Source of the DNA: Candidatus Eiseniibacteriota bacterium
Lineage (GTDB): Bacteria; Eisenbacteria; RBG-16-71-46
DNA length: 64,000 nt
Assembly (NCBI GenBank): GCA_041483195.1
Contig: JBGPFC010000015.1
Location: 1-64,000, forward strand
Direction: 5' to 3'
Below are positions 1 through 19,239 of the stretch, piece after piece. The position numbers and the translations under genes were made by a program. Every line of letters starts with the position of its first letter. Position 1 is the stretch's first letter. Under the pieces are notes generated by a model. It worked only from the letters and a program-made list of their open reading frames with translations, ran no database searches and was not told the origin of the DNA.

Positions 1-141
1 CGAACGGCCACGCTGGCGACCCGACGATCGGCATCCGCTCAAACGGCTCGCTCATCCCGAGGCGCTCGATCCGGAAACCCCCAACCGCACCCGGACAAAA
101 TCACTGCGGAGTTAACCGGACAGAATCACTGCGTGACAACA
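1..141 (+). mobile_element. 3' end of an IS1202/ISNCY (IS481-like) insertion sequence: transposase C-terminus plus terminal repeat
   Basis: Frame 2..115 reads ERPRWRPDDRHPLKR...* (resembles the PxxxHPW[KR] C-terminus of ISNCY transposases); two 18-bp direct repeats CCGGACA(A/G)AATCACTGCG at 91-108 and 116-133; element ends ...GACAACA (TGTTGTC on the other strand). Confidence 0.7.
91..133. repeat. Tandem 18-bp direct repeats (putative transposase-binding sites), 25-bp period
   Basis: CCGGACAAAATCACTGCG vs CCGGACAGAATCACTGCG, 17/18 identical. Confidence 0.9.
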
Positions 142-157
142 AGACGGGCGACCCGCG

Positions 158-185
158 TGTGGGACGTCAGTGAAAATGACACCCC
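158..185 (+). mobile_element. Orphan IS-end-like sequence
   Basis: TGTGGGACGT-CAGTGA-AAA-TGAC fits the same TGY-N7-CAGTGA-N3-TGWC pattern as the end at 141 and the copy at 2971. Confidence 0.5.
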
Positions 186-529
186 CTAACGCGTCTGGTA
201 AGCGGATCCACCTCGATGCCGTGCACGTCGGCTCCGAGACTCGCGAGCAGTCTCAGATGGCAGGCGGTGCCGTAGCCGAAGTCGGCGATTCGCCAGCCAC
301 GCACGTCCGAGAAGTCGTGCTCGGCGAGCAACTGCAGCGGCCGCACGCAGGCGAGCGGCGAGCCGTGGCGCGTGACGTAGTAGACGGTCTCGTCAATCGA
401 ACGGTGCCGCAGACGCGCGCGCGCCTCGGCGCGGAGCTCGTCGACCTCCGTGCTGTCGAGCCCGCCGGCGGCGGCGACGAGGGCGCCGGTGACGAGCAGC
501 AGCAGCACGAGTGGGATCAGACGACGCAT
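167..529 (-). pseudogene. Truncated secreted class I SAM-dependent methyltransferase
   Basis: Signal-peptide-like N-terminus; motif I IADFGYG and motif II GADVHGIEVDP; the frame then runs into the IS-end-like sequence and stops, so the rest of the Rossmann fold is missing. Confidence 0.65.
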
Positions 530-744
530 GTCAGCCTCGCGAGGGGAAGACGCGATCGGGCGCCGGCGCTCGCCCGAATCGTTGGGGCGTGTGCCCGGTC
601 ACCCCCGGCTGGCGACGCGCCGCATGATGCGCCAGCGCAATCGAGCGTAGCAGGTGCGAGGAGTGCGCCGATGGGGTTGCGAAGAGTGCGGCATCGCCGC
701 GCTCGACCCCGTGAGACGCGCTCCCGGCGCTCGGGGCTCCGCCG

Positions 745-2370
745 TCAGCGGCTGCCGCCGCCGGGACCCTCGCCGAGGATGGAATGGCTCCCGGCCAGCT
801 CGAGCTGACGCCCGACGGCCGCCCAGTCGCCGGCGAGCGGCCGGCCGTACCAGACTCGTAGTCGCGCGGCGGCGATATGCGCGCCGGCGATCCGAATCTT
901 GATCCGCCAGTCCGGGTCGAGACCCAGGTCCACGGTACGCGAATCGGCGAGCATGCCTCGGGTTCTCGCCAGCGCCCGATTGGCCATGATGCCAAACTCG
1001 CCGGACTCGCCCTCGGGGTGCTCGATGTCGAACACGGTGGCGAACGTCATGGGGTCCACGTGCAGACCGGGGGGGACACCGTGCACCTGGTCGTCGTAGC
1101 ACGACGCCACGACCAGCGGAGTGCCGCCGCGGGAGCGGCGCTGATTGATCTCGAAGGTGAATACCAGGTCATCGGTGATGACGAGGGCCGGCCGCCCGCC
1201 GGCCAACTCCTCGAGACGCGCGATGTACTCGTCGGGGTGATCGTTGAACTGACGCTTGGCCGTTCCGGTGCGCGCCACGAGATGCTGCGCGCCGAGGGCG
1301 ACCCAGGCGACCGCCACCAGGGTCGCGAACACGCGCCACGCACGTGCCCTCGCCCGCTCGGCGCCGGAGGCCAGCAGCAGTGCTACGAAGGGCACGAGCC
1401 CGATCAGGGAGTACGAGTGGCTGGCGACCCCCGATGCCACTTCTGAGGCCAGCATGAGCGCGAGGAAGGTGAGCAATGCCGCGAGCTCGCGCTCCGCGGG
1501 GGGATCCTGCGCGAGCTCGCGCCAACGCTCGGGGAGCCCGCGCAGGAAGAGCCCCGCTGCGGGCAGCACCAGGCCGAGCACGACCAGCGCCGCCATCGGG
1601 TGCCAGGGCAGGATCGCTTGGCCGATCGAGAGCGCGTACGCGCTGCGCGCCGCGGCCATGAGGAGCGGCGCCATGGTCCCATGCCCGGTGCGGATAACGT
1701 CGTGCGTGAGATGGCGGAGTTGCGGCGAGGCGACACCAGCCGCCACCACCCCCAGCGCGACGAGGCGCGCGAGGCTCACCCGCCCGGGTCCGTGGCGCAC
1801 GAGCCACGCCACGGCGAGACACGGCAGGAATAGCAGCGTGAGGTAGTCGTAGTAGACGAGCAGCCCGCCGGCCACCCCCAGCGCCACAGCGACGGGCCAC
1901 CGGGGCGCCGCATCGCGCCGTGCCGGGAGCAGGGCCGCCGAGACCATCGCCAGCGCCACGGACCACCAGATCGGGTACCAGCGGATCGAGCTGTTCCACA
2001 TCAGCGCCTGCGGATGCAGGAACGCCAGCGCCGCGAAGTCCGCGCGTCCCCACCCGCTCGCGAGCAGGCGCCGGGCGGAGAGCGTGAACCACAGGACGCC
2101 GGCCGACCAAATCGTCAGATGAACGGCGGCGAGTCCACGAGCCGATCCCACGACGAGAAGCAGGAGACGATCGAGCGCGTGGGCTCCCGGTGGGTGCCAG
2201 TCGCGCGTGTTGCCCCACGCCCACAGCACGCGCAGCGGCTTGTGGATGGTGCTGAGCGACATCCATTCGTCCTCGTAGATGTTGCGATAACGGAGGACGA
2301 TCAGCCCGAGCACGAAGCCGAGCAGGCCGAACAGCAGGACCGAGCTTCTGCCAGCAGTCTTAGAGCGCAT
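745..2370 (-). CDS. Multi-TM GT-C fold (PMT/GT39-like) glycosyltransferase
   Basis: N-terminal TM followed by YEDE acidic loop, HPP motif, IRWY motif and many TM helices; ATG at 2370 chosen over the longer ORF start. Confidence 0.7.
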   Translation of the reverse strand: MRSKTAGRSSVLLFGLLGFVLGLIVLRYRNIYEDEWMSLSTIHKPLRVLWAWGNTRDWHPPGAHALDRLLLLVVGSARGLAAVHLTIWSAGVLWFTLSARRLLASGWGRADFAALAFLHPQALMWNSSIRWYPIWWSVALAMVSAALLPARRDAAPRWPVAVALGVAGGLLVYYDYLTLLFLPCLAVAWLVRHGPGRVSLARLVALGVVAAGVASPQLRHLTHDVIRTGHGTMAPLLMAAARSAYALSIGQAILPWHPMAALVVLGLVLPAAGLFLRGLPERWRELAQDPPAERELAALLTFLALMLASEVASGVASHSYSLIGLVPFVALLLASGAERARARAWRVFATLVAVAWVALGAQHLVARTGTAKRQFNDHPDEYIARLEELAGGRPALVITDDLVFTFEINQRRSRGGTPLVVASCYDDQVHGVPPGLHVDPMTFATVFDIEHPEGESGEFGIMANRALARTRGMLADSRTVDLGLDPDWRIKIRIAGAHIAAARLRVWYGRPLAGDWAAVGRQLELAGSHSILGEGPGGGSR

Positions 2371-2575
2371 GCGCGCGCGCCCGGCCGGCGATCGTGCCGG
2401 ACGGAACGGGCTTCGAGAAGGTGCGGGTCCCGGGCAACACGGTCTCCGCAGGCGAGCGGTGAATCGACGAGGCGCACACGTTAGGCCCCACCCCCCCCGC
2501 GAGTCAATGGATACGGGCCGAGGCGTCTGGTCACGGGATAGGCGCGCGGCTGGCCTCGGGCCACGGCCCAACTAA

Positions 2576-2635
2576 CTCAAAGCGGATCGCTTCCATCGGG
2601 TCGAGACTAAACGCACGCATCGCCGGGTAGACGCC
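2576..2635 (-). pseudogene. C-terminal fragment of a MacB/FtsX-type ABC permease
   Basis: Minus strand reads GVYPAMRAFSLDPMEAIRFE, the typical GxYPAxRAxxLDPxEAxRxE end of these permeases; no upstream gene body. Confidence 0.65.
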
Positions 2636-2816
2636 TCAGGACCAGCCGGCCGCGGCGCGCGGCGCTCCCGCCGTGCGCCGCGACGACGTCGACGCGTCCT
2701 TTGACTCCGGCGATGAGCGCGAAGGGATCGGATTCGCCGGCCGTGGCGGCCGCGACCGGAAGCATCGCGAGGACGGCGATCCCCGCGATGAAACGACAGT
2801 TGAGCCCGATCGACAT
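2636..2816 (-). pseudogene. N-terminal fragment of a secreted protein (possibly FecR-like)
   Basis: GGAGG RBS plus ATG; signal peptide MSIGLNCRFIAGIAVLAMLPVAAATA, then IAGVKGRVDVV; coding sense is lost at the junction with the permease fragment. Confidence 0.45.
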
Positions 2817-2970
2817 GCGAACCTCCGGGGGTCCTGGACGCAGAGTCACATGTGATGGCCGTCGTAGCCTGCGCGCGACGCGTTCGGGCTCCAAGTGAAG
2901 AGGGGATGGAGCCGGTTCGCAGGGGACCCAAGCCGCATGCCGCGTTTCGTGCAACGATCCTGCGCTCGCG

Positions 2971-3017
2971 TGCGGGCCGTCAGTGAAAATGTCCGGGTCA
3001 ACTCGGCTGTGATCCGG
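2971..3017 (+). mobile_element. Degenerate orphan IS1202-like end
   Basis: TGCGGGCCGTCAGTGAAAATGTCCGGGTCAACTCGGCTGTGA aligns with the reverse complement of 91-141 (TGTTGTCACGCAGTGATTCTGTCCGGTTAACTCCGCAGTGA), including the spacer and second repeat. Confidence 0.6.
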
Positions 3018-3062
3018 CTTGGGGCATGGGCAACTAGACGATGGCGCGCGGTTCGGGGCCGC

Positions 3063-3105
3063 AAAAAAGGAGGCCTTGCGTCCGCTGTCATGGCTTTGCT
3101 AACCT
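3063..3105 (+). promoter_or_regulatory. Sigma70-type promoter
   Basis: A-tract 3063-3068, -35 TTGCGT 3076-3081, 18-bp spacer, extended -10 TGcTAACCT 3097-3105. Confidence 0.55.
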
Positions 3106-3111
3106 CATCTG

Positions 3112-3370
3112 TGTCGCGCCGCACTCTCCGCTTCGGGCCCGGGGACAGACCATCGGCCACTTGCTAACTGGGTGTGTTGGGAAGAACGAGCCAACAACAC
3201 TGGGTCGCCAGCGGCGACCAGGCGGCCTGGCCGCAATGCCAGGATGCATCCGAGGTCTGACACCTTGTTGTTTCCCCTGCTGCACGTGCTCGAGGCGTCC
3301 TCGACCCAGTTCGCGCGGATGAAGCGAGAGCTTTAAGCCGGGGGGAAGCGTCTTCCTCTCGGCTTTTTGT
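3112..3370 (+). ncRNA. Putative structured leader RNA or sRNA of unknown family
   Basis: Lies between a promoter and a terminator; has several complementary segments (see findings); no convincing ORF. Confidence 0.5.
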
Positions 3371-3371
3371 T
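3335..3371 (+). terminator. Intrinsic terminator just upstream of the glycan operon
   Basis: 14-bp stem AAGCCGGGGGGAAG/CTTCCTCTCGGCTT (2 G-U pairs), CGT loop, followed by TTTGTT. Confidence 0.8.
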
Positions 3372-3400
3372 CACGGGCAGCACAACAGAGAGCGGCGACG

Positions 3401-4351
3401 ATGGAGCCCGATATCCTCGCAACCCCCAGCGACGGGGCGACCGGAAGCGCGGTGCGGCCCCCGGCAACGGATTCGGTTCGAATGGACGTATTGGATCACC
3501 ACAGCGCGACCGCCGCACCCGCCCCATCGACCACGACGTCGCAGAATTCCGCCCCGTTCCCGGTGCGTCAGGATTCGGGCAGCGGGCAGATGAACGGTCA
3601 CGCCATGTCCAACGGTCACGCCCGCCACTACGTCAACGGGATGAATGGCGGCTCCAATGGCCTGTCGATGCACGCCGGCCGTCCGGCCCCCGGTTCCGGA
3701 AGCGCCGCCGCCGCGACGCTCGTGCCGCTCGAGGCTCGCGCCGAGAGCCTGTACCTCCGCTTCGGCAAGCGCGCATTCGATGTCGTTGGCGCGGTGATCG
3801 CGCTGATCGTCACCGCTCCGCTCATGCTGCTGATCTCGATCGCGATCAAGCTCGAGTCGAACGGCCCGGTGCTGTATCGCTCGACGCGCATCGGGCGCGG
3901 CGGGAGGCCCTTCACCTTCCTCAAGCTGCGCTCGATGGTTCACGGCGCCGACCGTCACCGCCAGCACCTGAATCACCTGAACGAGGCCGACGGACCGGTG
4001 TTCAAGATCAGCAGGGATCCGCGCGTGACGCGCGTCGGCCGCCTGCTGCGCGTGCTGAGCATCGACGAGATCCCGCAGTTCCTGAACGTGCTGCGCGGCG
4101 AGATGAGCCTGGTGGGCCCGCGCCCCCCGATTCCCGAGGAAGTGAGGCAATACGAGCCATGGCAGCTGCGCCGGCTCGACGTGCGTCCCGGTATCACCTG
4201 CCTGTGGCAGATCAGCGGCCGCAGCCGCATCGGATTCCAGGAGTGGATGCGCCTCGACCTGGAATACATTCGCAACCAGTCCTTCACGCTGGACCTCAAG
4301 ATCCTGCTGCGCACCATTCCCGCCGTTCTGTCCCGGGAGGGCGCGTACTGA
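3401..4351 (+). CDS. Priming sugar transferase (polyprenyl-phosphate glycosylphosphotransferase, Bac_transf family)
   Basis: KRAFD, DPRVTRVG, SIDEIPQFLNVLRGEMSLVGPRP, PGITCLWQISGRS motifs. Confidence 0.93.
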   Translation: MEPDILATPSDGATGSAVRPPATDSVRMDVLDHHSATAAPAPSTTTSQNSAPFPVRQDSGSGQMNGHAMSNGHARHYVNGMNGGSNGLSMHAGRPAPGSGSAAAATLVPLEARAESLYLRFGKRAFDVVGAVIALIVTAPLMLLISIAIKLESNGPVLYRSTRIGRGGRPFTFLKLRSMVHGADRHRQHLNHLNEADGPVFKISRDPRVTRVGRLLRVLSIDEIPQFLNVLRGEMSLVGPRPPIPEEVRQYEPWQLRRLDVRPGITCLWQISGRSRIGFQEWMRLDLEYIRNQSFTLDLKILLRTIPAVLSREGAY

Positions 4352-5949
4352 CGGGAGCCCACACGAGCTCGACCAGTCGCTCTCGATCCCGGCCGGATCC
4401 CGCACCGCCCACCACCTCGCACGCCGCATCGGCAACCGTCTGGAACGTCGTCGCCGCGACCGTTCTGGCCGTCGCGCTGCGCGGATTCCACATCGGGCGG
4501 CAGAGCCTCTGGATCGACGAGATCCTGACCTGGTATTCCGCCGGGATCGGGAGCCGCATGGCGTTGCGCGATCTGCTGGACAACGTTCACGGGCCGCTCT
4601 ACGGGCTGCTGCTCCACGTGTGGGGCGGGTTCGCGGGGGATTCCGAATGGTCGCTGCGCGCCCCGTCCGCGCTGTGCGGCGTGGCGATGGTTCCGGCCAT
4701 GGCCTGGCTCGCCGCGCGCTGGCTGGGACGCAAGGGCGCGACCCCCGCCGCGTGGCTCACGGCGGGCTCGCCGTTCCTGGTGTGGTACTCGCAGGAGGCG
4801 CGGAACTACTCGATGCTGATGCTGTGCGTGACGCTCTCCGGCGCGGCGTTGCTCGAGCTGAGGCGCACCCCGGGCGCGCGCGGACTCGCGGGCTACCTGC
4901 TCGCCGCCGGGGCGGGCATGCTCTCGAACTTCTCGTTCGCGCTGATCGCCCCGCTCCACCTGCGCTGGTGGATCGCCGGAAAGGAGGGCCGGTCGCGGCG
5001 CCTCGCGCTGCTCGGCGCGGCACTGGTCGCGCTCACGCTGGCCGTGACGCCATGGGTCCCGCAGGTCGCGCGCATCTGGGACTGGCAGCGGCTCCATCCG
5101 GGACGCACGGCCGGCGCGAACGAAGCGCCGCTGCGCGGGGCCACGCTGCTGCATCCGGCCGCGGCTCCGTATGCGCTGTACACGTTCGCGGCGGGATACA
5201 CGCTCGGCCCGTCGCTTCGCGAGCTGCGCGCCGACTCGGGAGCGCGCACCATCGCCCGGCACGCGCCGGCGGTGCTCGCGACGGTGCTGGTGTTCGGCGC
5301 GCTCGGCCTGCTCGGCCTCGCCGCGCTGCAGCGCCGTGGGCGGCTGACCGACGCGCTGATGTGGCTGGTGATTCCGATCGGCGCGGTGAGCTACTTCGCC
5401 TTTCAGAACTTCAAGGTGTTCCATCCCCGCTACCTGGCCGTCTCGTTCCCCTGCTGCCTGCTGGTGATGGCTGCCGGGCTCGCGGACCTGCGCCCGCGCG
5501 CGCGCGTGCTCGCGGCGCTCGCGATCGGCATACTATGGCTGGTGTCGCTCCAGCACCTGTACTTCGACCCGCGCTACGGCAAGGAAGACTATCGCGGCGC
5601 CGCCGCGCTGGTGCGCGCGCGGGGCATGGCCGGCGAAAGGCTGCTGGCGGTGAACACCGAGGATCCGATGGTCTACTACTATCGTGGCCCGCTCCCGAAG
5701 GCGCGGTTCTGGCTCGGCCTGGTGTCGCGCCCTCAGCGCATGGAGGAGAAGTTCGACGAGGCGCTCGCCGGCGCGAGTGGCGCGTGGGTGGTGCTGAGCA
5801 GGCCCGAGGATCTCGATCCGGGCGGGGTATTCGTGAAGTTCATCGAGCGGCGTTATCCGACCGCGGAGCGCGTCGCGCTCGAGGGCGTGCGGGTGTGGCA
5901 CATTCGGCTCGAGGGCGGCGCGCCCGCGCGCGCGGCCTCTGGCACCTGA
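4348..5949 (+). CDS. GT39/PMT-like (GT-C) membrane glycosyltransferase; probable CTG start
   Basis: QSLWIDE, HGPLY, EWSLRAPS, WYSQEARNYS motifs; GGGAGGG RBS then CTG overlapping the upstream TGA. Confidence 0.85.
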   Translation: MTGAHTSSTSRSRSRPDPAPPTTSHAASATVWNVVAATVLAVALRGFHIGRQSLWIDEILTWYSAGIGSRMALRDLLDNVHGPLYGLLLHVWGGFAGDSEWSLRAPSALCGVAMVPAMAWLAARWLGRKGATPAAWLTAGSPFLVWYSQEARNYSMLMLCVTLSGAALLELRRTPGARGLAGYLLAAGAGMLSNFSFALIAPLHLRWWIAGKEGRSRRLALLGAALVALTLAVTPWVPQVARIWDWQRLHPGRTAGANEAPLRGATLLHPAAAPYALYTFAAGYTLGPSLRELRADSGARTIARHAPAVLATVLVFGALGLLGLAALQRRGRLTDALMWLVIPIGAVSYFAFQNFKVFHPRYLAVSFPCCLLVMAAGLADLRPRARVLAALAIGILWLVSLQHLYFDPRYGKEDYRGAAALVRARGMAGERLLAVNTEDPMVYYYRGPLPKARFWLGLVSRPQRMEEKFDEALAGASGAWVVLSRPEDLDPGGVFVKFIERRYPTAERVALEGVRVWHIRLEGGAPARAASGT

Positions 5950-6032
5950 TTTCAATCCGGGTCGCGTGACCCGGCGTGGAGCGGCGCGACGGCGCCGCTG
6001 CGCACGCCGGACGCGGCCCACGGGAGAGTCGC

Positions 6033-7349
6033 ATGCAAGTGGTCGTCGTGGGGCTGGGATACGTGGGGTCGGTGTGTTCGGCCTGTCTTGCGAGCCGCGG
6101 GCACCGAGTGGTCGGGGTCGACGTCAGCGCCTTCAAGGTGGAGGCGATCGAGAGCGGCCGCAGCCCGATCGTCGAGAACGGTCTCGATGCGATGATCGCC
6201 GACGCCCGCGCGCGCGGGTCGCTGCGCGCTACGACCCGCATCGCCGACGCGATGGCGGCGGCCGAGCTCGTGCTGCTGTGCGTGGGAACCCCGAGCGGTC
6301 CAGACGGCGCCCTCCAGCTCGAGCACGTGAAGCGTGCGGCGCACGAGGTGGGCGAGGCGCTGCGGCTTTCCGGCACGTTCACCACCGTCGTGATGCGCAG
6401 CACCATGCTCCCGGGCAGCGTCGAGGCGCAGATCGTTCCGGCGCTGGAGGCCGCGTCCGGCAAGCGCGCGCGAGTCGACTTCGGGGTCGCATACAATCCC
6501 GAGTTCCTGCGGGAGGGCTCGGCGGTGGCTGACTTCTTCGGAGCGGAGATCACCGTGGTGGGGGCGAGCGACGAGCGGAGCGCGGCGGCGGTGCGCACGC
6601 TCTACGACGGCGTGGGAGGAGAGCTGGTCGTGACCTCGATCCGTACCGCCGAGATGCTCAAGTACGTGAACAACGCCTATCACGCGCTCAAGGTGTCGTT
6701 CGCGAACGAGGTGGGCCGCTGGGCGCGCATCGAGGGCGTGGACAGCCACGAGGTCATGGCGCTGTTCTGCCGCGACACGCGCCTCAATCTCGGCGCCAGC
6801 TACCTGAAGCCCGGATTCGCGTTCGGGGGCTCGTGTCTGCCCAAGGACCTGCGCGCGCTCAATCAGCGCGCACGCCACCACGACCTCGAGCTGCCGGTGC
6901 TCGCGTCCATCATGCGCTCGAACGACCGCCACGTGGAGGAGGCGATCCAGCTCATCGAGCGGCTCAAGAAGCGCCGCATCGGGGTGCTCGGGCTCTCGTT
7001 CAAGGCGGAGACCGATGACCTGCGAGAGAGCCCCATCCTGCGCGTGGTCGGCGCGCTGGTCGGGAAGGGCTACGGCGTGCTGCTCCACGATCCCAACATC
7101 GACATGGAGCGCGTCCTCGGAGCGAACCGGCGGTTCGTCGAGGACGAGGTGCCCTACCTGCCCGAGCGCCTGCGCGCCACCGTCGAGGAGGTGGTGAAGG
7201 GGAGTGAGGTGATCGTGGTGGCGAACGGCGCGAAGGAATTTCGCGGCGTGGGGGCGATGCTGAAGCCCGGGCAGGCGCTGGTGGATCTGGTGCACGCCGT
7301 GGATCGCGCGAGCGTCATCGCCGGGGAGTACCATGGCCTCGCGTGGTAG
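6033..7349 (+). CDS. GDP-mannose 6-dehydrogenase (AlgD-like) / nucleotide-sugar dehydrogenase
   Basis: GLGYVG, NPEFLREG, YLKPGFAFGGSCLPKD, GLSFKAETDDLRESP; AlgD-like C-terminus. Confidence 0.9.
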   Translation: MQVVVVGLGYVGSVCSACLASRGHRVVGVDVSAFKVEAIESGRSPIVENGLDAMIADARARGSLRATTRIADAMAAAELVLLCVGTPSGPDGALQLEHVKRAAHEVGEALRLSGTFTTVVMRSTMLPGSVEAQIVPALEAASGKRARVDFGVAYNPEFLREGSAVADFFGAEITVVGASDERSAAAVRTLYDGVGGELVVTSIRTAEMLKYVNNAYHALKVSFANEVGRWARIEGVDSHEVMALFCRDTRLNLGASYLKPGFAFGGSCLPKDLRALNQRARHHDLELPVLASIMRSNDRHVEEAIQLIERLKKRRIGVLGLSFKAETDDLRESPILRVVGALVGKGYGVLLHDPNIDMERVLGANRRFVEDEVPYLPERLRATVEEVVKGSEVIVVANGAKEFRGVGAMLKPGQALVDLVHAVDRASVIAGEYHGLAW

Positions 7350-8547
7350 GGTTCTCCACCTCTCGGAGAATCTGCCGCTGCCCTTCGATCGTCGCGTGTG
7401 GATGGAGCTCACCGCCCTGAAGCGGGGCGGCTTCGAGGTGTCCGCGATCTGCCCGATGGGAGATCCGTACAACGCCCGCTACGAAGAGATCGACGGCATC
7501 GCGATCTGGCGCTATCCCGCGCCGCCCCCCACCCGCGGATTCCTCTCCTATGTCTGGGAATTTCTCTACTGCTGGCTCCAGACGGCGCGGCTCACGCTGG
7601 TGGTGCTGAGCCGGCGCGGGTTCGACATCATTCACGCCGCCAATCCGCCCGACACCTTCTGGGCGATCGCGCTTCCACTCCGGCTGCTCGGCAAGCGCTA
7701 CGTGTTCGATCACCACGACCTGTGCCCCGAGCTGTACGTCGCGCGCTTCGGCGACGCGAAGGCGGGAACGCTTCCGCATCGCCTGCTGCGGGCGCTCGAA
7801 TGGGCGCAGTTCCGCAGCGCGCACCTGGTGATCTCGACCAACGAATCCTACCGCCAGATCGCGATCGGCCGCGGCGGCGTGGACCCCGCGCGCGTGATCG
7901 TGGTGCGCAGCGGTCCGAGTCGCGAGCGCTTCGCGACCGTGCGCCCGGTCGCGCCGGAGCTCAAGCGCGGGAGGCGGTTCCTGGTCGCGTACCTGGGGGT
8001 CATGGCGCCGCAGGACGGCGTGGACCACCTGCTGCGGGCCGCGCACATCCTGGTGCATCAGCGCGGGCGCGACGACGTCGCATTCACGCTGGTGGGCGCC
8101 GGCGACTCGTTCGAGGACCTGAAGACGCTCTCGCACTCGCTGAACCTCGACGCGCACGTGGAGTTCACCGGCAGGATCCCGGACCCCGACGTCGAGCGCA
8201 TCCTCACCACCGCGGACGTGTGCGTGTGCCCCGATCCGAAGAACCCGCTCAACGACCTCTCGACCATGAACAAGGTGCTCGAGTACATGGCGTGCGGGCG
8301 GCCGATCGTTGCATACGACCTGCGCGAGCACCGGTACTCGGCGGCGGACGGCGCGCTGTACGCGGCGCCCAACCACGAGGACGACCTGGCCGCCAGGATC
8401 ATCGAGCTGCTCGACGATCCGGGGCGGCGGGCGGCGATGGGCGAATACAACCGGAAGCGTTTCCTCGAGCGCATGGCGTGGGAATACAGCGCGGGCGAGC
8501 TGCTCCGGGCCTACGAGGTGGTATGCGGACCGACGACCGGCGCGTGA
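7333..8547 (+). CDS. Glycosyltransferase family 4
   Basis: ENLPLPFDRRVW, FDHHDLCPE, TMNKVLEYMACGRPIV. Confidence 0.92.
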   Translation: MASRGRVLHLSENLPLPFDRRVWMELTALKRGGFEVSAICPMGDPYNARYEEIDGIAIWRYPAPPPTRGFLSYVWEFLYCWLQTARLTLVVLSRRGFDIIHAANPPDTFWAIALPLRLLGKRYVFDHHDLCPELYVARFGDAKAGTLPHRLLRALEWAQFRSAHLVISTNESYRQIAIGRGGVDPARVIVVRSGPSRERFATVRPVAPELKRGRRFLVAYLGVMAPQDGVDHLLRAAHILVHQRGRDDVAFTLVGAGDSFEDLKTLSHSLNLDAHVEFTGRIPDPDVERILTTADVCVCPDPKNPLNDLSTMNKVLEYMACGRPIVAYDLREHRYSAADGALYAAPNHEDDLAARIIELLDDPGRRAAMGEYNRKRFLERMAWEYSAGELLRAYEVVCGPTTGA

Positions 8548-9722
8548 GGGTGCTGCTCGCCGAGAGCGGCAGCGCGGTGGGTGGCACCGAGCGCGTCGTG
8601 TGGGAGCTCGCGACCCGCCTCAGCCGCGAACGCTTCCAGGTCGGGGTGTGGCTCTCGGTCGCGCCCGGAGTGGACGAGCTCGCCCAGTCGCTGGTCGCGA
8701 GCGGCGTGCCGGTCGAGCGCGTGCCCGAGGTGGACTCGCGCTGGGACTGGCCGGGCATGTTCGCGACCTGGCGGCGCCTGCGGCGCGTGCGGCCCACCCT
8801 GCTCCATCTGCATCACGTGTGGCCGGCCGCCGACCGCTACCTCGCCTCGATCGCGGGGGCGGCGGGGGTCGAGCACCTGGTCGTCACCGAGCACATCGTT
8901 GGGCAATCGCACTCCGCCCCGCAGCGCGCGCTCAAGCGCGGCGAACTCCAGGGCGCCGACGCCGTGACCGCCGTGTGCGGAGCGGTCGCCGAGTCGCTGG
9001 TGCGGGAATACGGCGTGCCGCGCACCCGCGTGCGGGTGGTCGCGAACGGCGCGGATCCGCCCGACGAGGCCGCCGAGCAGGAGCCCGCGCGCCGGCTGCG
9101 GCAATCGTTCGGAGTCACACCGGCTCGCCCGCTCTGGGTGTGCGCGGCGCGGCTCGAGCGGCAGAAGGGCCACGACGTGCTGATCGAGGCGCTCGCCGAG
9201 GTGAGACGCGCCGGGCTCGACTTCACGGTGGCGCTCGCGGGCGAAGGCGCGCTGCGGGCCGAGCTCGAGCACCGCGCCGCGGAACTCGGGCTCGGCGCTC
9301 GCGTGCGCTTCCTCGGGCAGGTCGAGGCGATCGGGCCGCTGCTGGCGGCGGCCGACGCGGTGCTGCTGCCTTCGCGCTGGGAGGGCCTGCCGCTCACGCT
9401 GCTCGAAGCCATGGCGCGCGGGCGCCCGGTCATCGCGAGCGCGGTGGGCGGAATTCCCGAGATCGTCGAGAACGGAGCCACCGGCCGGCTGGTGCCGCCC
9501 GAGGACGCGGCGGCGCTCGCCGACGCGCTCGAGTGGTGCCATCGCAAACCCGACGCCGCGCTGCGCATGGGCCGCGCGGGCGCCGCGCTGGTACGCGAGC
9601 ATCACACGTGGCGGCACGTCGTGGAGTCGTTCGAGGCCGTGTACGACGAAGTGCTGGGTCTCGCGAGCTTCACGCCGGACGGCGCGCGCGGGGCGGCGGC
9701 CTCCGCGAAGGCGGGGCCATGA
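8544..9722 (+). CDS. Glycosyltransferase family 4
   Basis: GGTERVV, ARLERQKG, PSRWEGLPLTLLEAMA; GTGA overlap with the upstream gene. Confidence 0.92.
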   Translation: MRVLLAESGSAVGGTERVVWELATRLSRERFQVGVWLSVAPGVDELAQSLVASGVPVERVPEVDSRWDWPGMFATWRRLRRVRPTLLHLHHVWPAADRYLASIAGAAGVEHLVVTEHIVGQSHSAPQRALKRGELQGADAVTAVCGAVAESLVREYGVPRTRVRVVANGADPPDEAAEQEPARRLRQSFGVTPARPLWVCAARLERQKGHDVLIEALAEVRRAGLDFTVALAGEGALRAELEHRAAELGLGARVRFLGQVEAIGPLLAAADAVLLPSRWEGLPLTLLEAMARGRPVIASAVGGIPEIVENGATGRLVPPEDAAALADALEWCHRKPDAALRMGRAGAALVREHHTWRHVVESFEAVYDEVLGLASFTPDGARGAAASAKAGP

Positions 9723-10708
9723 CGCTCGGCGTCGTGATCCCCTGTTACCGGCAGGAGCGCTTCCTCGCGCGCACCCTCGGCGCGATCGAGCGCGCGCTGG
9801 ACGGACACGCGTGGCGAGGCGCGCTGGTGATGGCCGCGCCGGGATCGCACCCGCTGCCCGCGTCCTCGTTGCGCTGGCAGGTGATCGCTCCGCCCCGGTC
9901 CGCGCCGCTCACTCCGGGCGCGGCCCGCATGCTCGGGTTCGCGGCGTGCGGCGGCGAATGGGTGCTGTTCGTCGATGCCGATGTCGAGCTCGAGCGCGCC
10001 TGGGCGGAGGCGGCGGGCGCTGCGATGGGCCGCGCGGAGGGCGCAGCGCTCGCGGGGCTGGGCGGGCGCCTCGAGGAGTGGTTCGAGGACGCGGCAGGCG
10101 AGCGGCGCGGAGCGCCCGACATGTATGGCGTCGGCGAATCCGATCGCCGTGTGGATTACCTCGCGACGCTCGCGTGCTATCGGCGCGAGGCGCTGATCGC
10201 GGCCGGCGGATACGACCCGCGCCTCTCCTCCGAAGAAGACTTCGAGCTGGGCCTGCGGATGCGCGGGCTCGGGCTCGAGCTGCGCTCGCTGGGCGTCCGC
10301 GCCGGCCGTCACTGGAGCGCGCCGCGGCCCAGCTTCGAGGAGCATGCGCGCCGCTGGCGAACCGGACTCTGCTTCGGCCAGGGCCAGGTGCTGCGCCTGT
10401 ACGCGGGCCGGCCCGGCTTCGGCGCGTTGCTGCGGAGGCAGGCGCTCTACCTCGCGACGCTCGCGATCTGGGGAATGGGCGTGCTCGCATTCGTGGCATC
10501 GCTCGCCACGCGCAGCGCGCGGCCGTTCGCGATGTGGTCGCTGCTGCCGCTCGCCGTGCTCGCCGTGATGGGTGCGCGCAAGGGCAGCGGGTGGCTCGGA
10601 CTCCACTCGCTGCTCGCATGGACGCTGAACGGCCTGGGTCTGGCGGTCGGGCTGTTCCGTCTTCCGGGACGAGGCGACGGCCCGGTACCGGGCGGGCGCG
10701 CATGCTGA
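9719..10708 (+). CDS. Glycosyltransferase family 2 with C-terminal TM helices
   Basis: VVIPCY, LFVDAD (DxD), GGYD...EEDFELG; ATGA overlap. Confidence 0.88.
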   Translation: MTLGVVIPCYRQERFLARTLGAIERALDGHAWRGALVMAAPGSHPLPASSLRWQVIAPPRSAPLTPGAARMLGFAACGGEWVLFVDADVELERAWAEAAGAAMGRAEGAALAGLGGRLEEWFEDAAGERRGAPDMYGVGESDRRVDYLATLACYRREALIAAGGYDPRLSSEEDFELGLRMRGLGLELRSLGVRAGRHWSAPRPSFEEHARRWRTGLCFGQGQVLRLYAGRPGFGALLRRQALYLATLAIWGMGVLAFVASLATRSARPFAMWSLLPLAVLAVMGARKGSGWLGLHSLLAWTLNGLGLAVGLFRLPGRGDGPVPGGRAC

Positions 10709-11907
10709 TTCACGGGGCGACCGACAACGACATCTACCCGCCGCTGTTCGGCGCTTCGCAGCGCAGCTTCGGACTCTATCGCGGGCTCGCGCGCCGGCAC
10801 GAGGTCGTGGTGCTGTGCGTGGTGCCGAACCGCAATCGTGCGCCGCTCGAGCAGCGCGCTCAGGGCGTGACGCTGATCCGCCGGCGCGCGTGGTACACGA
10901 GCCTCGCGTGGCGCCTCGAGCGCGCGCGCCTCGCGCCGCTGTTTCTCGCGGCGCATGGCCACGCGTGGCGCGCGGGCCGGCTGCGCCACGCGCTCCCCGC
11001 CTCGGCCGACGTGTGCATGGCGGACCTCCACCTCGCGGGCCTGCTGGCGCGCCGTCCGGCGCGGCTGCGCGTGCTCGATTGCCAGAACGTCGAGTCCGAT
11101 CATTTTCGGACGGCGGGGCCATCGCTCGCCGCGCGCGGGTTCTGGGCGGCGCGGCTGCGCGCGATCGAGGCGCGAGCGATGCGCGGCGCCGATCTGGTGA
11201 TCGCCGCCAGCGACGAGGACGCGGCGCGCCTGCGGGCGCTCTACGGCATCGCCCCCGGGGCGCTCGCGGTGATTCCCAACGGGTACGACGAGACGGCGGT
11301 GCGCCCCCCGGTCACGGACGAGCGCGCGCGCGCGCGCGCCGCGCTCGGGATCGAAGCGGACGACGCCGTCGCGCTGTTCGTGGGCTCCGATGTTCCGCAC
11401 AATCGTTCGGCGCTGGCCCTCGCGCTCGAGCGCGTGATGCTCCCGCTCGCGCGCGACGGGTGGAAGCTGCTGGTCGCGGGCTCGGTGTCGCGCGCGATCG
11501 CCGGTCGTCGCGAACCGTGGCTGATCGCGCGGCCCGCCGTGCCCGACCTGCTCCCGATCCTCCATGCGGCCGACGTGGGCCTCAATCCCGCGACGGAGGG
11601 CGGCGGAAGCAACGTGAAGCTCCCGACCTATCTCGCCGCCGGACTCGCGGTGCTGACGACGCGTTTCGGGGTGCGCGGCTACGCGGCGCTCGAGCCGCTC
11701 GTCATCGTCGCCGAGCCGGACGCGATGAGCGACGCGCTGCGCGCGCGTCCACGCGGGTGGGGCGCGTCCGGCGCGGGGGCGCCGCCCGCGATCGCGGCCC
11801 ACGCATGGGGAACGCTCGGAGAGCGGCTGGGCGAGGTGTTCGCGGCCCGCCTCGGCGGGGAGCCGGCCGCCTCCGGCGCGGGCGAAGCGGGAGGGGCGAG
11901 CGCGTGA
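10702..11907 (+). CDS. Glycosyltransferase family 4
   Basis: YPP..GASQR, DCQNVE, IPNG, GGSNVKLPTYLAAG. Confidence 0.85.
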   Translation: MLIHGATDNDIYPPLFGASQRSFGLYRGLARRHEVVVLCVVPNRNRAPLEQRAQGVTLIRRRAWYTSLAWRLERARLAPLFLAAHGHAWRAGRLRHALPASADVCMADLHLAGLLARRPARLRVLDCQNVESDHFRTAGPSLAARGFWAARLRAIEARAMRGADLVIAASDEDAARLRALYGIAPGALAVIPNGYDETAVRPPVTDERARARAALGIEADDAVALFVGSDVPHNRSALALALERVMLPLARDGWKLLVAGSVSRAIAGRREPWLIARPAVPDLLPILHAADVGLNPATEGGGSNVKLPTYLAAGLAVLTTRFGVRGYAALEPLVIVAEPDAMSDALRARPRGWGASGAGAPPAIAAHAWGTLGERLGEVFAARLGGEPAASGAGEAGGASA

Positions 11908-12998
11908 GGATCGCCATGATCGGCCAGAAGGGCGTCCCCGCGACCTACGGCGGGATCGAGAAGCACATCGAGGAGATCGCGCGCCGCCTGGTCGAGCGCG
12001 GTCACGAGGTCTCGGTGTTCTGCCGCTACCACTACACGCCTCGCAGCGCACGGTTCGACGGGGTGCGGCTGCTGCGCCGGCCCAGCATCGCCACCAAGCA
12101 CCTCGACACCGTGACGCACGTCGCGTGGAGCACGGCCGAGGCCATGCTGCGGCGCCACGACATCGTGCATTTCCACGCCCTGGGTCCCTCGATGTTCTCC
12201 TGCCTGCCGCGCCTGACCGGCCAGAAGACGGCGGTGACCGTGCACGGCCTCGACTGGCAACGCCAGAAGTGGGGCAGGTTCGCGGCCTGGGTGCTGAGGC
12301 AGTGCGAGGGTCCGGCCGCGCGCTTTCCGAATCGCACCATTGTGGTGTCGAAGACGCTGCGCGAGCACTTCCGCGTCCACCATCACCGCGACGCCGCGTT
12401 CATCCCGAACGGCACCAATCTGCCGGTGCCGCGCGCCGCGAACAAGATCCTCGAGCTCGGCCTGAAGCCCGGGAAGTACGTGCTGTTCGTCGGACGGCTG
12501 GTGCCCGAGAAGGGCGTGCACTTCCTGTGCGAGGCGTTCCGCAGCATCGACACCGACATGACGCTCGCGCTCGCGGGGGGGCTCTCGTTTTCGGCCGACT
12601 ACGTCCAGTCGCTGCGCCGCTACGAGGGCGACCGGGTGCGCATGCTCGACTACGTGTACGGCGAGACGCTCGAGGAGCTGTGGAGCAACGCCTATCTGGT
12701 CGTCCACCCCTCCACCATGGAGGGGCTCTCGATCGCTCTGCTCGAGGCGCTCTCCTACGGGCGGTGCGTGTTGCTCTCGGACATCCCCGAGAACATGGAA
12801 GTCGGGGCCGACATCGCGGTGCCGTTCCACACCCAGGACGTGGCCGATCTCCACTCGAAGCTCGAAACCCTGATCCGCGATCCCGATCGCGTACGCGAGT
12901 ACGAGCGTCGCGCACGGGCGCACATCGCGGACCACTATTCGTGGGACACCGTCGCCGAACAGACCGAGGCGCTGTACCGCGAGATGCTGAAGCGGTGA
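11904..12998 (+). CDS. Glycosyltransferase family 4
   Basis: IAMIGQKGVPATYGGIE, GRLVPEKG, EGLSIALLEALSYG; GTGA overlap. Confidence 0.93.
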   Translation: MRIAMIGQKGVPATYGGIEKHIEEIARRLVERGHEVSVFCRYHYTPRSARFDGVRLLRRPSIATKHLDTVTHVAWSTAEAMLRRHDIVHFHALGPSMFSCLPRLTGQKTAVTVHGLDWQRQKWGRFAAWVLRQCEGPAARFPNRTIVVSKTLREHFRVHHHRDAAFIPNGTNLPVPRAANKILELGLKPGKYVLFVGRLVPEKGVHFLCEAFRSIDTDMTLALAGGLSFSADYVQSLRRYEGDRVRMLDYVYGETLEELWSNAYLVVHPSTMEGLSIALLEALSYGRCVLLSDIPENMEVGADIAVPFHTQDVADLHSKLETLIRDPDRVREYERRARAHIADHYSWDTVAEQTEALYREMLKR

Positions 12999-13121
12999 CC
13001 ACGCCGGGGCGCCGCGGGGAGCGTGGGGGGTGGACAGGTCGGACGCGCCGCCGGCATGATTGCCGCCCGGCGCACGCTGTGCTACTCATCGCGCGCCATC
13101 CAATCGAGGAGCCGCGCACCG

Positions 13122-14165
13122 ATGCCTGAACGCTTCGTGCTGGTGCTCGCCGGCGGCCGTGGCGAGCGATTCTGGCCGTGGAGCCGACCCGAGCGCCCGA
13201 AGCAACTGCTGCCGCTGGCGCGGGGCGGGCGTTCGCTGCTGGCCGCGACCTTCGAACGCGCGACGGCCCTGGTCCCCGCGGATCACGTGATCGTGATGAC
13301 CTCTTCCGATCTGTGCGCCGCCGTCGAGCGCGAGTGCCCGGGGGCGCGCGTGCTCGGCGAGCCGATGCCGCGCAATACCGCGCCGGCGATCGCGGCGGCC
13401 GCTGCGTTCATCCCAGACGCCGCCGCGTTCGCGGTACTCCCCGCCGATCACGCGATCGATGCCGTCGACGCCTGCACCCGCGACTTCGAGCGTGCCTTCC
13501 GGATCGCAGAGCGCGATGCGGTGCTGGTGACGTTCGGGGTCCCGCCCACCCGGGACGACATCAACTTCGGATACATCCGGCGCGGCGCGGCGCTGGGCGA
13601 GCGCGTGTTCCGGGTCGCGCAGTTCACAGAGAAGCCGGACCTCGATCGCGCGCGGGAATGGGTCGCGAGCGGCGACTACTCGTGGAACACCGGCATGTTC
13701 GTGTGGCGGCGCGCGGTGTTCTTCGACGCGCTCGAGGCGGGGCGCCCCGCGCTCGCCTCCGCGCTTCGCGGGCTCGACGTCGCGGGCGGGGTCGCAGCGT
13801 TCGGCGCGCGGCTGCGCGAGGTGTTTCCCGCGCTCGAGTCCATCTCGGTGGACTACGCGGTGCTCGAGCGCGCGCCCAACGCGGTGGTGATCGAGGCCTC
13901 CTTCGACTGGGACGACCTCGGAACGTGGGGCGTGTGGGCGCGCCGTCAACCGCGCGATGCGCGCGGGAACGTGGCGTTCGGGGACGCCGTGATCGTGGAC
14001 TGCGACGGCTGCGTCGTGGTGGGCGAGGGCGGCACGGCCGCCGCGATGGGCCTGCGTGACACGGTGGTGGTGCACGTGAACGGCGTGACCCTGAGCTGCC
14101 CGCTCTCCGCGAGCGACGGCGTGCGGCGCGTGAGCGCTGCATTGCGCGAGCGGACCGCCCGATGA
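13122..14165 (+). CDS. manC: Mannose-1-phosphate guanylyltransferase
   Basis: LAGGRGERFWPWSR..PKQ, RNTAPAI, PADH, FTEKP, SVDYAVLE, WDDLGTW. Confidence 0.92.
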   Translation: MPERFVLVLAGGRGERFWPWSRPERPKQLLPLARGGRSLLAATFERATALVPADHVIVMTSSDLCAAVERECPGARVLGEPMPRNTAPAIAAAAAFIPDAAAFAVLPADHAIDAVDACTRDFERAFRIAERDAVLVTFGVPPTRDDINFGYIRRGAALGERVFRVAQFTEKPDLDRAREWVASGDYSWNTGMFVWRRAVFFDALEAGRPALASALRGLDVAGGVAAFGARLREVFPALESISVDYAVLERAPNAVVIEASFDWDDLGTWGVWARRQPRDARGNVAFGDAVIVDCDGCVVVGEGGTAAAMGLRDTVVVHVNGVTLSCPLSASDGVRRVSAALRERTAR

Positions 14166-14899
14166 GCATGCGCGCGCCGTTCGCGGGCCTGCTCGCCCTG
14201 GTGTTGCTGGCGGGCGCGGCGGGTGCGCCGGGCAGGACGCCGGTGGGCACCACGGCGTCGGGCGGCTCGATCCTTTCGAACGCCCCGCACGCGGCGGTGG
14301 TGGACAGCGGGCCCTCGGCGGATGCTGCGGCGGTGCTCTCCAGCATTCCCGAGCCGCTCGCGCCGGGCGAGCGCGTGCCGCCCGGCGCGAGCGGGGCGAT
14401 CGGAACGCGGGCGGGCGCGCGCGCGGACAGCGCAGCCGGGACGACCGCCGGGGGCGCCGCCCCGACCGGCGCGGACAGCACGGGCGCGGCGCGCGCGGAG
14501 TCGCGTTCGGCGAGCGCCGACACCGGCGACGCCGTCCCGGTTCCGGAGCCCACCGCGCCGCTCGGCGATGCGCCCGGATCGCTCGCGCGGCATGCGGCGC
14601 TCGACAGCGCGATGCGGGCGATGCCCGCCGCGCCACCTTCGGCCACGACCGCGCACCCGCGGCCCGACAGTTGCTGGCGCGTCCAGATCGCGGCGCCGCT
14701 GGTGGCGGCCGAGGCCGAGCTGAAGCGCTCGGCGGCGGAGTCGCTGCTGCTCCAGTCGATGGTGATCGTGCACGAGAAGGGCCGCTACAAGGTCCGCACC
14801 CGCGACTGCCTGACGCGCGCCGCGGCGGTCGCGTTGCGCCAGCGGGCGGTTGGCTCCAGCTTCACCGGGGCGTTCACGGTCGTCGAGGTGAAGCGATGA
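14162..14899 (+). CDS. SPOR-domain secreted protein
   Basis: Signal peptide, low-complexity linker, C-terminal WRVQIAA...YKVR...GAFTV. Confidence 0.75.
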   Translation: MSMRAPFAGLLALVLLAGAAGAPGRTPVGTTASGGSILSNAPHAAVVDSGPSADAAAVLSSIPEPLAPGERVPPGASGAIGTRAGARADSAAGTTAGGAAPTGADSTGAARAESRSASADTGDAVPVPEPTAPLGDAPGSLARHAALDSAMRAMPAAPPSATTAHPRPDSCWRVQIAAPLVAAEAELKRSAAESLLLQSMVIVHEKGRYKVRTRDCLTRAAAVALRQRAVGSSFTGAFTVVEVKR

Positions 14900-16140
14900 G
14901 CCGCGCGCTGGTCGTTTTCGAGGACGCGCGCTGGCGGCAGTTGCGTCCGTTCACCGATCTGCTTCCGGTGCCAGCGCTCGCGTTCGGAGCCTCGAGCCTG
15001 TGGGAGCGATGGCGGCGCATGGCGGGCCTCCCATTGCTCGCGATCGAGGCGCGCGCGCCGCTGATGGCGAGCTGGCGCGAAGCCCCGCGGCCCGATGCGC
15101 CGCGGCTCGAGGCGCGCGACGAGGTGCTGGTCGTGAACGCCGCGGTCCTGCCCGAGAGCCTGATCGATCAGGCGTCGGCGACGCGGGTGCCATCGCTGCT
15201 GGTGGCGGGCGGGCGCGTGGTGGGCGCGCGGCTGCACGTCGAGACGCTTGCGCCGGGTCTCGGGCGCGGGGCCGAGTTCGAGCGCTTCCTCGCGGGTCTC
15301 GCGCTCGAGACGTTCGAGGTCGAGGCGCGCGTCCTGAACTGGCCGTGGCGATTCGTCGGCTGGAACGCGGAGGCCATCACGCGCGACCTCGAGGGGCGCG
15401 GCGGCGAGCTCGCGGGCGAGCGCCACCCGCTCGCCGCGATCCTGAATCCCGAAGGCGTCTCCATCGAGCCGAAGGCGCGGATCGACGCGTTCGCAGTGCT
15501 CGACGCACGCGACGGTCCGATCCGGATCGGAGCCGGCGCGTGGGTGCGCCCGCACACGCTGGTCTCGGGGCCGTGCGTGGTGGGTGCGGGCTCGCAACTG
15601 CTGGGGGGCGCGATCGGGCGCTCGACGATCGGACCGGGATGCCGGCTGGCCGGCGAGGTCGAGGAGTGCGTGTGGCAGGGCTGGGCCAACAAGCGCCATC
15701 ACGGATTCGTCGGGCACAGCGTGGTCGGGGAATGGGTCAACCTCGGCGCGCTCACGACCACCAGCGATCTCAAGAACAACTATCGCCCGGTCCGCGTGTG
15801 GGTGGACGGACGCGAAGAGGACAGCGGCGAGATCAAGGTGGGATCACTGCTGGGGGCGCACGCGAGGACCGGCATCGGGACGCTGTTGCCGACCGGAGCC
15901 GCGATCGGCACGGGCTCGAATCTGTTCGGAGGCGGGCGCTTCACCCCGAAGCACCTGCCGGCGTTCGCGTGGTGGGACGGCGAGCGCACCGTCGAGCATC
16001 GCTTCGACCGTTTCCTCGAGACCACGCGAACGGCCTGGCGGCGTCGCGACCGCGAGCTGACCGCGAGCGAGGAGGCCGCGATGCGCGGGCTGTTCGATGC
16101 GACGCGCGCGGAGCGCGCGGCGGACGGCGTGGTGGAATAG
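14896..16140 (+). CDS. Putative sugar nucleotidyltransferase / GlmU-like protein with hexapeptide repeats
   Basis: LRPFT N-terminus, LDARDGPI, NKRHHGFVGHS..GEWVNLGALTTTSDLKNNY. Confidence 0.85.
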   Translation: MSRALVVFEDARWRQLRPFTDLLPVPALAFGASSLWERWRRMAGLPLLAIEARAPLMASWREAPRPDAPRLEARDEVLVVNAAVLPESLIDQASATRVPSLLVAGGRVVGARLHVETLAPGLGRGAEFERFLAGLALETFEVEARVLNWPWRFVGWNAEAITRDLEGRGGELAGERHPLAAILNPEGVSIEPKARIDAFAVLDARDGPIRIGAGAWVRPHTLVSGPCVVGAGSQLLGGAIGRSTIGPGCRLAGEVEECVWQGWANKRHHGFVGHSVVGEWVNLGALTTTSDLKNNYRPVRVWVDGREEDSGEIKVGSLLGAHARTGIGTLLPTGAAIGTGSNLFGGGRFTPKHLPAFAWWDGERTVEHRFDRFLETTRTAWRRRDRELTASEEAAMRGLFDATRAERAADGVVE

Positions 16141-16250
16141 GCGCGCCCGCCGCTCGCGTGTATGGCGCCGCCTGGAATCGCGAGGATCGTGTTGTCCTTC
16201 ACGCCGCTCGATGCGAACCTGTTCATGACCTTTCAAATCCGACCACGCCG

Positions 16251-16649: not shown

Positions 16650-16691
16650 AATTTTCCGCGCGCGGTTCTGCACTCTGGCGACCGCGCAACC

Positions 16692-19123: not shown

Positions 19124-19140
19124 GCGTCGCGCGCCGCGGC

Positions 19141-19170: not shown

Positions 19171-19239
19171 CCATCGCCTTTCCGCGATGCGGGTGCTTCA
19201 GGGCCCGCTTTCGCGCAGTCCCACCCGCCGAGGAGTCTC

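Follow-up and report, generated by a model that had tools for sequence, protein, structure and literature searches.

The stretch of DNA analyzed here, 64,000 nucleotides (nt) of a Candidatus Eiseniibacteriota bacterium and called the window throughout, holds between positions 3063 and 3400, directly in front of the glycan operon and its first gene, a priming sugar transferase, a leader that is a previously undescribed folded RNA of ~290 bases, confined to one family of the Eisenbacteria (labeled f1). A preliminary description of the same sequence had postulated an unrecognized structured leader of ~255 nt, running from promoter to terminator directly before the glycan operon. This view was borne out, with no Rfam match to the leader and with conservation accompanied by covariation. 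We consider it highly likely that the element is a new conserved cis-regulatory leader equipped with a terminator. That it works as a switch, by regulated termination or regulated translation, appears rather probable to us, and we favor, with some reservation, its designation as a cis-acting attenuator of riboswitch-like build heading the glycan operon. In the alignment of its homologues, covariation supports three hairpins (H2, H3, and H4), the terminator hairpin (P3), and a helix named P1, which is predicted to span the terminator and to end a few bases before the ribosome-binding site. The switch itself we infer, since no antiterminator is shown by covariation.

The distribution of the leader was examined by several complementary searches. 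BLAST with positions 3060-3400 as query returned matches in 19 of 41 related genomes (16 of the 24 belonging to the family of the window), with a single leader copy in the genome of the window, and a query of 3158-3412 matched 44 of 89 genomes of this family. The orthologous transferase gene lies directly 3' of the leader in 16 of the 19 BLAST loci; of the other three, one is truncated by the end of its contig and two are short, weak matches. Searching species-representative genomes by protein yielded 80 loci (L048-L127). With an nhmmer profile, the leader was located 5' of the orthologous transferase in all but one of the 50 loci L048-L097 (49 loci); the sole exception, L095, comprises four bases of upstream DNA. 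The same profile gave no match in the 30 more distant loci L098-L127 (Planctomycetota, Vicinamibacterales, and others). Close relatives of the genes of the window stand in public records under the label Candidatus Eisenbacteria. A few of the 49 leader-bearing records carry another phylum label or none (e.g., L082, L087, L093, and L096), and these labels were taken as given.

Removal of near-duplicates reduced 81 leaders to 64 distinct ones. A covariance model of the leader (R1; 270 positions, 49 pairs) detected one copy in the genome of the window (229.6 bits). Of the 44 genomes sampled from the family, 38 contained exactly one copy each, and the 76 genomes from 16 other families in the phylum contained none; in this survey of families, stricter filters apply above 40 genomes. 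The counts of the 41-genome BLAST search, of the R1 survey, and of the NusG survey described below include one unpublished genome, G026, with no leader match and one NusG match. Of the six genomes of the family lacking the leader, five were examined, and these hold only distant paralogues of the transferase, at 42-53% identity over the catalytic domain; the leader-associated orthologues share 75-83% identity over the same domain. Leader and orthologous gene thus travel together. Wherever checked, the leader adjoins the orthologous transferase gene, and it was never found away from it.

Comparison with known RNA families was performed with the 4,227 models of Rfam 15, as the preliminary description had suggested. 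At gathering thresholds no match was obtained in the leader, and the sole Rfam match of the whole window is a tRNA gene at 33936-34009 (+ strand). At E values up to 10, the region 2850-3500 gave only two chance-level hairpin matches (15.1 and 13.6 bits). Across 19 diverse homologous loci, searched at E values up to 5, none fell into the leader and one unrelated match lay outside it. A 6S RNA identity is ruled out: there is no RF00013 match in the region, and the genome carries its 6S RNA gene on another contig (G000:C5:48550-48742, locus L154), with a score of 67.5 bits that exceeds the gathering cut-off of 46.4. A leader peptide or small open reading frame (ORF) is likewise ruled out by the lack of a conserved reading frame, as a stop-free frame crosses the leader in at most 5 of 65 sequences and the conservation shows no three-base period. 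Our literature search found no Eisenbacteria paper that also mentions riboswitches, and a search on riboswitch candidates with exopolysaccharide or a sugar transferase gave nothing relevant among the matches listed.

All structure counts were made on a MAFFT alignment of the 64 sequences (A2), which was not fitted to any structure. All aligned sequences stem from one family, so that many columns are invariant and therefore mute for or against pairings; the shuffle controls ignore the relatedness of the sequences. The combined model of H2, H3, H4, P1, P2 with its inner stems, and P3 is paired in 81.2% of the cells of A2, compared with 38-48% in slid registers, and none of 500 shuffles reached it on any of five measures. 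Covariation in relatives, named beforehand as a way to check the element, was thus found for H2, H3, H4, P3, and P1.

The helix P1 was absent from the pairings listed in the preliminary description. Its 5' strand (strand A, 3279-3288, + strand) was identified by covariation, RNAalifold, and exhaustive helix search; its 3' strand (strand B, 3372-3381, + strand) lies 3' of the terminator and is the commonest partner of strand A in single-sequence folds. RNAalifold predicted P1 initially from 15 sequences and again from a model-based alignment, and thus gives P1 together with P3 on two alignments; P1 also ranks as the top covarying helix of the exhaustive search. Taken alone, it is paired in 87.7% of the cells, and 0 of 500 shuffles attained its pairing, its number of cells changed on both sides, or its covariation score. 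At pair 179/305, for instance, the alignment contains 46 CG, 13 UA, and 3 UG. Since P1 pairs across the terminator, the leader extends beyond it as far as the ribosome-binding site. Strand B is followed by a conserved ACAAC, a ribosome-binding-like GAGAG (3388-3392), and a spacer (together 3382-3400, + strand), and conservation runs on through the start codon into ATGGAGCCCGAC. Inside P1, the arm P2 (3289-3328, + strand; stem 3289-3292 with 3325-3328) encloses an inner hairpin at 3298-3319. P2 is paired in 90.2% of the cells with little variation and its inner stems in 79.5% and 52.1%, and the arm differs between clades. A kink-turn in the internal loop of P2 was ruled out by eye, as the required GA is absent.

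These features bear on the question whether the element is an independent trans-acting small RNA (sRNA) that is ~255 nt long, has a promoter and a terminator of its own, and only happens to be located upstream of the operon. The preliminary description had left the choice between a novel regulatory element and such an independent sRNA. The structured, conserved leader stood, and the sRNA option is weakened by P1 and by the conservation beyond the terminator. A conserved promoter and a strong terminator are what an sRNA gene would show, and the terminated leader could also act in trans. Nevertheless, the conserved sequence does not end at the terminator but reaches the start codon, strand B beyond the terminator covaries with strand A within the leader, and the element never occurs away from the orthologous transferase gene, so that we judge this explanation to be quite improbable.

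Upstream of strand A, the conserved part of the leader is organized as a sensor-like domain of blocks and hairpins, all on the + strand. It opens with a conserved G-rich block 1 (3139-3150), reading GGGGA in the window (3141-3145) and GGAGG or GGAGA, mostly GGAGG, in relatives. Block 2 (3160-3173, CTTGCTAACTGGGT) is a nearly invariant junction, with several columns invariant or at least 90% conserved in A2. Hairpin H1 (3171-3177 with 3186-3192) has the conserved word ACGAGCC, here called Z, as its 3' strand; 80.5% of its cells are paired, against at most 47.9% when slid, which makes it register-specific. Its covariation is modest, the score being reached by 38 of 500 shuffles, and H1 also appears in single-sequence folds. 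In hairpin H2 (3200-3222) the sequence is variable and the pairing kept, with two-sided changes at all six stem pairs in A2, and RNAalifold predicts it independently on alignment A3. Hairpin H3 (3226-3243) likewise shows two-sided changes: in A2, pair 115/131 is CG in 30 and UA in 24 sequences, pair 116/130 GC in 44 and AU in 8, and pair 118/128 CG in 25, AU in 11, and UA in 4. A conserved junction ATGCATC and hairpin H4 follow (3244-3267; stem 3251-3255 with 3263-3267), the H4 loop ending in a conserved GACA. H4 is paired in 89.6% of the cells, with mostly one-sided changes from G-C to G-U. The local hairpins noted earlier in the single sequence proved to be conserved, GGTCGCC/GGCGACC corresponding to H2 and CCTGGC/GCCAGG to H3, with TGTTGG/CCAACA overlapping H1. 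The domain ends with a conserved C tract (3268-3278, TTGTTTCCCCT), which is the 3' strand of a candidate closing helix P0 and part of a possible antiterminator; block 1 is the 5' strand of P0. Formed by block 1 and the following bases with the C tract and the preceding bases, P0 occurs in the lowest-energy fold of 40 of the 64 sequences. That this G-rich/C-rich helix closes the H1-H4 domain is plausible.

Folding energies of single sequences lie somewhat below those of dinucleotide shuffles (mean z of -1.32; below zero in 56 of 65 and below -2 in 18 of 65). The copy in the window has a z of -2.02, a modest value, and G+C-rich DNA folds readily, both of which would suit a region without functional RNA, i.e., chance structure, a leader peptide, or a DNA-level regulatory region. 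Against this stand the two-sided compensatory changes in H2, H3, P1, and P3, the lack of a conserved reading frame, and a calibrated model finding one copy per genome across the family, and we give this explanation hardly any credence.

P3 (3335-3370, + strand) has the form of an intrinsic terminator. The strong terminator described earlier was confirmed by a terminator scan as a hairpin at 3335-3365 with 14 pairs followed by TTTTT (T run 3364-3368). It represents the strongest terminator-like site in positions 1-20000 of the window, where no other strong one was found. In A2, seven of nine core pairs of P3 show two-sided changes; the hairpin is part of the lowest-energy full-length fold in 62 of 65 sequences and is strong in all 64, with a mean of -16.5 kcal/mol. 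At least five U within the next 8 nt are found in 52 of the 64 homologues, and a U run of at least four in 40 of them.

Besides strand B, strand A can meet several other partners. Z is its second-commonest partner in single-sequence folds, and the pairing of Z with A (3186-3191 with 3282-3287) is present in 91.9% of the cells and register-specific. A further candidate, Z with a second GCUCG word (3187-3191 with 3288-3292), was rejected; it reaches 80.6% with no significant covariation. Two candidates considered by eye, the U tract with the ribosome-binding site and strand B with codons 2-4, were likewise not retained. Positions 3390-3396 of the ribosome-binding region are complementary to strand A, and this pairing (3279-3285 with 3390-3396) is kept in 92.9% of the cells, again register-specifically. 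Moreover, the C tract and strand A resemble the 3' arm of the terminator, and in folds of transcripts truncated before this arm they pair with the terminator 5' arm in 23 of 65 sequences. As a side observation, CGAG recurs over 3186-3396 (in Z, the P2 3' strand, the terminator 5' arm, and the ribosome-site region) and CUCG twice after strand A and once in the terminator 3' arm; these words offer many alternative pairings, unranked by the present alignment.

Of the long-range pairings proposed in the preliminary description, three fail in relatives and a fourth is weak. For 3146-3156 with 3250-3259, 45.2% of the cells are paired, which is no better than shuffles, and the pairing conflicts with the conserved H4. 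The pairing of 3124-3134 with 3321-3330 lies in an unconserved stretch, its cognate duplexes averaging -14.36 and non-cognate ones -14.99, with 4,864 of 5,000 permutations as low. For 3179-3190 with 3264-3276, 52.8% of the cells are paired without register specificity. A pairing of AACTGGGT with ACCCAGTT (block 2 with 3305-3310) is the weak one: both words are conserved, but only 65.0% of the cells are paired and the covariation is weak. Segment 3124-3134 had further been thought to capture the terminator 5' arm as an antiterminator. This strand is unconserved and exhibits no cognate preference with 3312-3336, and the proposal falls because it was built on the failed 3124-3134 pairing. Judged by the alignment, most of these switch pairings and the antiterminator are peculiar to this one genome.

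From these data, a course of events can be proposed. Transcription would start at the conserved promoter, near 3111-3113, and the first ~170 nt would fold into the sensor-like domain, with the hairpins H1-H4 seen in the alignment arranged around invariant junctions and probably closed by P0. In a second domain, P3 would constitute one arm of a three-way junction. Some fraction of the transcripts would stop at P3, releasing a leader of ~255 nt and leaving the operon off. Polymerases reading through would make strand B, which, as the covariation shows, pairs back with A across the terminator as P1, and the read-through mRNA would carry the P1/P2/P3 fold at its translation start. P1 cannot decide termination, as the polymerase must already be past P3 when it synthesizes strand B; therefore P1 would act on the read-through message, by affecting translation or stability or by locking an "on" fold. 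In the version of the switch that we hold most likely, the decision would instead lie with the C tract and strand A, which could pair inside the sensor domain (in P0, or A with Z) or with the terminator 5' arm. A signal stabilizing the sensor fold would favor termination. As to the nature of such a signal, a small-molecule ligand is a tentative suggestion. In its most specific form, the proposal amounts to a new riboswitch class of one Candidatus Eisenbacteria family, in which P0 and H1-H4 would be the sensor, the signal could be, e.g., a nucleotide second messenger or a nucleotide sugar, the P1-closed terminator junction would serve as an unusual expression platform, and strand A would link sensor, termination, and access to the ribosome site; we offer this as a possible but doubtful reading.

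Several observations weigh against the regulated switch. P0 relies on complementarity between a G run and a C run; its cognate duplexes have a small advantage (an average of -11.44, compared with -10.86 for permuted ones, with 78 of 5,000 permutations as low, relatedness ignored), and the flanking pairs, tabulated over all sequences, display no consistent covariation. No alternative helix preventing the terminator is supported by covariation, and the candidate, in which the C tract plus strand A pair with the terminator 5' arm, is seen in no more than 23 of the 65 folds of truncated transcripts and consists of pairs between G runs and C runs. P1 is part of the lowest-energy full-length fold of only 19 of 65 sequences. 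The covariation between strand A and the ribosome site is no better than in shuffles, with this helix in 4 of 65 full-length folds, and the pairing of Z with A has no covariation beyond its conservation. A metabolite sensor would not usually be limited to one operon in one family, as this element is. Furthermore, the longest U run comprises three or fewer residues in 24 of 64 homologues (e.g., UCUUGCUU), and 2 sequences have almost no U, so that the core role conserved in the family may be one other than termination. Homologues with a decayed U tract still retain the hairpin and P1. We take termination to be the probable ancestral function, maintained in most lineages.

The degraded U tracts could also be read in favor of a constitutive structured 5' untranslated region, in which P1/P2/P3 and the hairpins stabilize the mRNA or set translation of the first gene, with P3 being architectural or a fixed attenuator. 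The position of P1, which forms only in transcripts past P3 and ends beside the ribosome-binding site, fits such a role as well. A ~170-nt upstream domain with invariant junctions is, however, more than a stabilizer needs, most homologues have a canonical terminator (the 52 of 64 with at least five U in 8 nt), and strand A has several conserved alternative partners. We consider this alternative improbable, and clearly less probable than the attenuator.

A different alternative is antitermination depending on a factor or directed at the RNA polymerase, in which the RNA or a protein bound to it would make the polymerase ignore P3 and later stops along the ~18-kb operon. The long polysaccharide cluster (3401 to ~21835), the strong terminator right behind a conserved leader with no covariation-supported RNA antiterminator, and the invariant single-stranded words as potential contact sites for a protein or the polymerase would all suit this model. 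Leaders served by the NusG paralogues RfaH (with ops), LoaP, and UpxY belong to polysaccharide operons that likewise begin with a leader and have an early terminator to overcome, and in these respects they resemble the present locus. Unlike them, the leader contains no ops-like word. The absence of an ops site stated in the preliminary description was confirmed, as its core word is missing from 3063-3400, the nearest + strand occurrence being at 25013. Nor was a NusG paralogue seen: in 26 genomes including that of the window, TIGR00922 gave one match in 15, two in none, and zero in 11, hence no second NusG-family gene. This test is weak, particularly for the genome of the window, because PF02357 and TIGR00922 have no match in its assembly, not even to the housekeeping nusG; the scanned ORFs of the operon likewise contained none. 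Of the 15 matching relatives, 10 have nusG ~700 bases from a contig start (loci L128-L133 in relatives), and the region beside nusG is probably a repeat that breaks assemblies.

Folded RNAs offer a second comparison for antitermination, namely the phage put RNAs and EAR, the eps-associated RNA of Bacillales, which is ~120 nt long and located between the second and third eps genes. Like EAR, the leader is structured, conserved, and associated with a long exopolysaccharide operon, and it may help the polymerase to reach the operon end. In contrast to EAR, it stands before the first gene, measures ~290 nt, and possesses its own terminator, without an Rfam match at any threshold used; by the same result it matches no antitermination RNA among the Rfam models, although which models these are was not checked. 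In addition, no other strong terminator-like site exists in 1-20000 of the window that would have to be overcome, and antitermination leaves P1 unexplained. Overall, we regard this model as unlikely, if somewhat less so than the constitutive leader.

At its 5' end, the transcript presumably starts behind a promoter-like region (3076-3105, + strand). The sigma70-like promoter reported there in the preliminary description held in that the boxes are present and are conserved, together with their spacing, in alignments of 15, 32, and 64 relatives; a generic sigma-70 consensus scan of the region, on the other hand, returned no site. The boxes are TTGCGT at 3076-3081 (TTGATT or TTGAA in relatives), TG at 3097-3098, and TAACCT at 3100-3105, with a conserved TGTCA in the spacer. 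A promoter function of this region is putative, based on the conserved letters. The following stretch (3106-3138, + strand), which contains the presumed transcription start at ~3111-3113, is variable and unconserved in the alignments. The word TTGCTAAC occurs twice, in the extended -10 region (3097-3105) and in block 2 (3162-3170), ~65 bases apart, and both occurrences are conserved in relatives.

The leader (3136-3406 in the window) and its homologues, 72 matches in total, have a G+C content of 58-65%, compared with 70.9% for the window. Downstream, the first operon gene (3401-4351, + strand) encodes the priming sugar transferase, a priming phosphoglycosyl transferase (PF02397, E value of 7.5e-66). 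Nearly all relatives keep its first four codons (ATGGAGCCCGAC, 3401-3412) unchanged as DNA; the ~110 residues after codon 4 (to 3730 in the window) vary and have low complexity. For codon 3, almost every homologue uses CCC, although CCG occurs 95 times and CCC 55 times in seven genes of the window. This pattern hints at an RNA-level constraint on the start region.

The transferase is followed on the same strand by genes for a PMT_2-type membrane glycosyltransferase, a UDP-glucose dehydrogenase, several GT4 enzymes, and one GT2 enzyme, and the run also holds a sugar-nucleotidyl transferase, a DUF2079, a GalT-like, and a starch-synthase-like gene. The operon thereby spans 3401 to ~21835 and constitutes a polysaccharide cluster of ~18 kb. 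Its second gene corresponds to the frame ending at 5949 (4243-5949, + strand), with a third-position G+C content of 0.80-0.98 and a PMT_2 match (PF13231, E value of 5.9e-10); the listed ORF 4620-5969 is an arginine-rich wrong-frame artefact. Between 4243 and 4558 the frame of the second gene has no in-frame ATG, GTG, or TTG, and for this reason the gene may overlap with the 3' end of its predecessor.

Compared with known systems, the leader most closely recalls terminator-type riboswitches and attenuators. It shares with them a promoter, a multi-helix domain with invariant junctions and variable peripheral hairpins, and a terminator before the first gene, as well as a strand beside the sensor domain with several mutually exclusive partners. 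Of the features that characterize riboswitches, a covariation-supported structured domain and a predicted intrinsic terminator as expression platform were found. In contrast to these systems, there is no Rfam match and no antiterminator shown by covariation, the regulon is a single operon, and the covarying helix encloses the terminator, with its 3' strand beyond the U tract and thus outside the termination decision. Another leader of this kind is the zipper-type attenuator cATTpLS20 of conjugation operons, in which sequences flanking a central stem-loop act on an intrinsic terminator located shortly before the first gene, and an upstream sequence forms the antiterminator by pairing with the terminator itself (PMC13401043). 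Both are long leaders before a very long operon with a terminator just 5' of the first gene. They differ in that the covarying helix of the present leader joins sequence before and after the terminator, and host and operon are different, with no sequence relation.

To our knowledge, nothing is known about gene regulation in the Eisenbacteria, a phylum known only from metagenomes. The leader provides a concrete handle on the control of surface glycans in these soil and sediment bacteria and would add a family to the RNA catalogues. Its terminator-spanning helix, ending at the ribosome-binding site, suggests how premature termination might be coupled to the translation of read-through transcripts. 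Discovery of a ligand would define a new riboswitch class.

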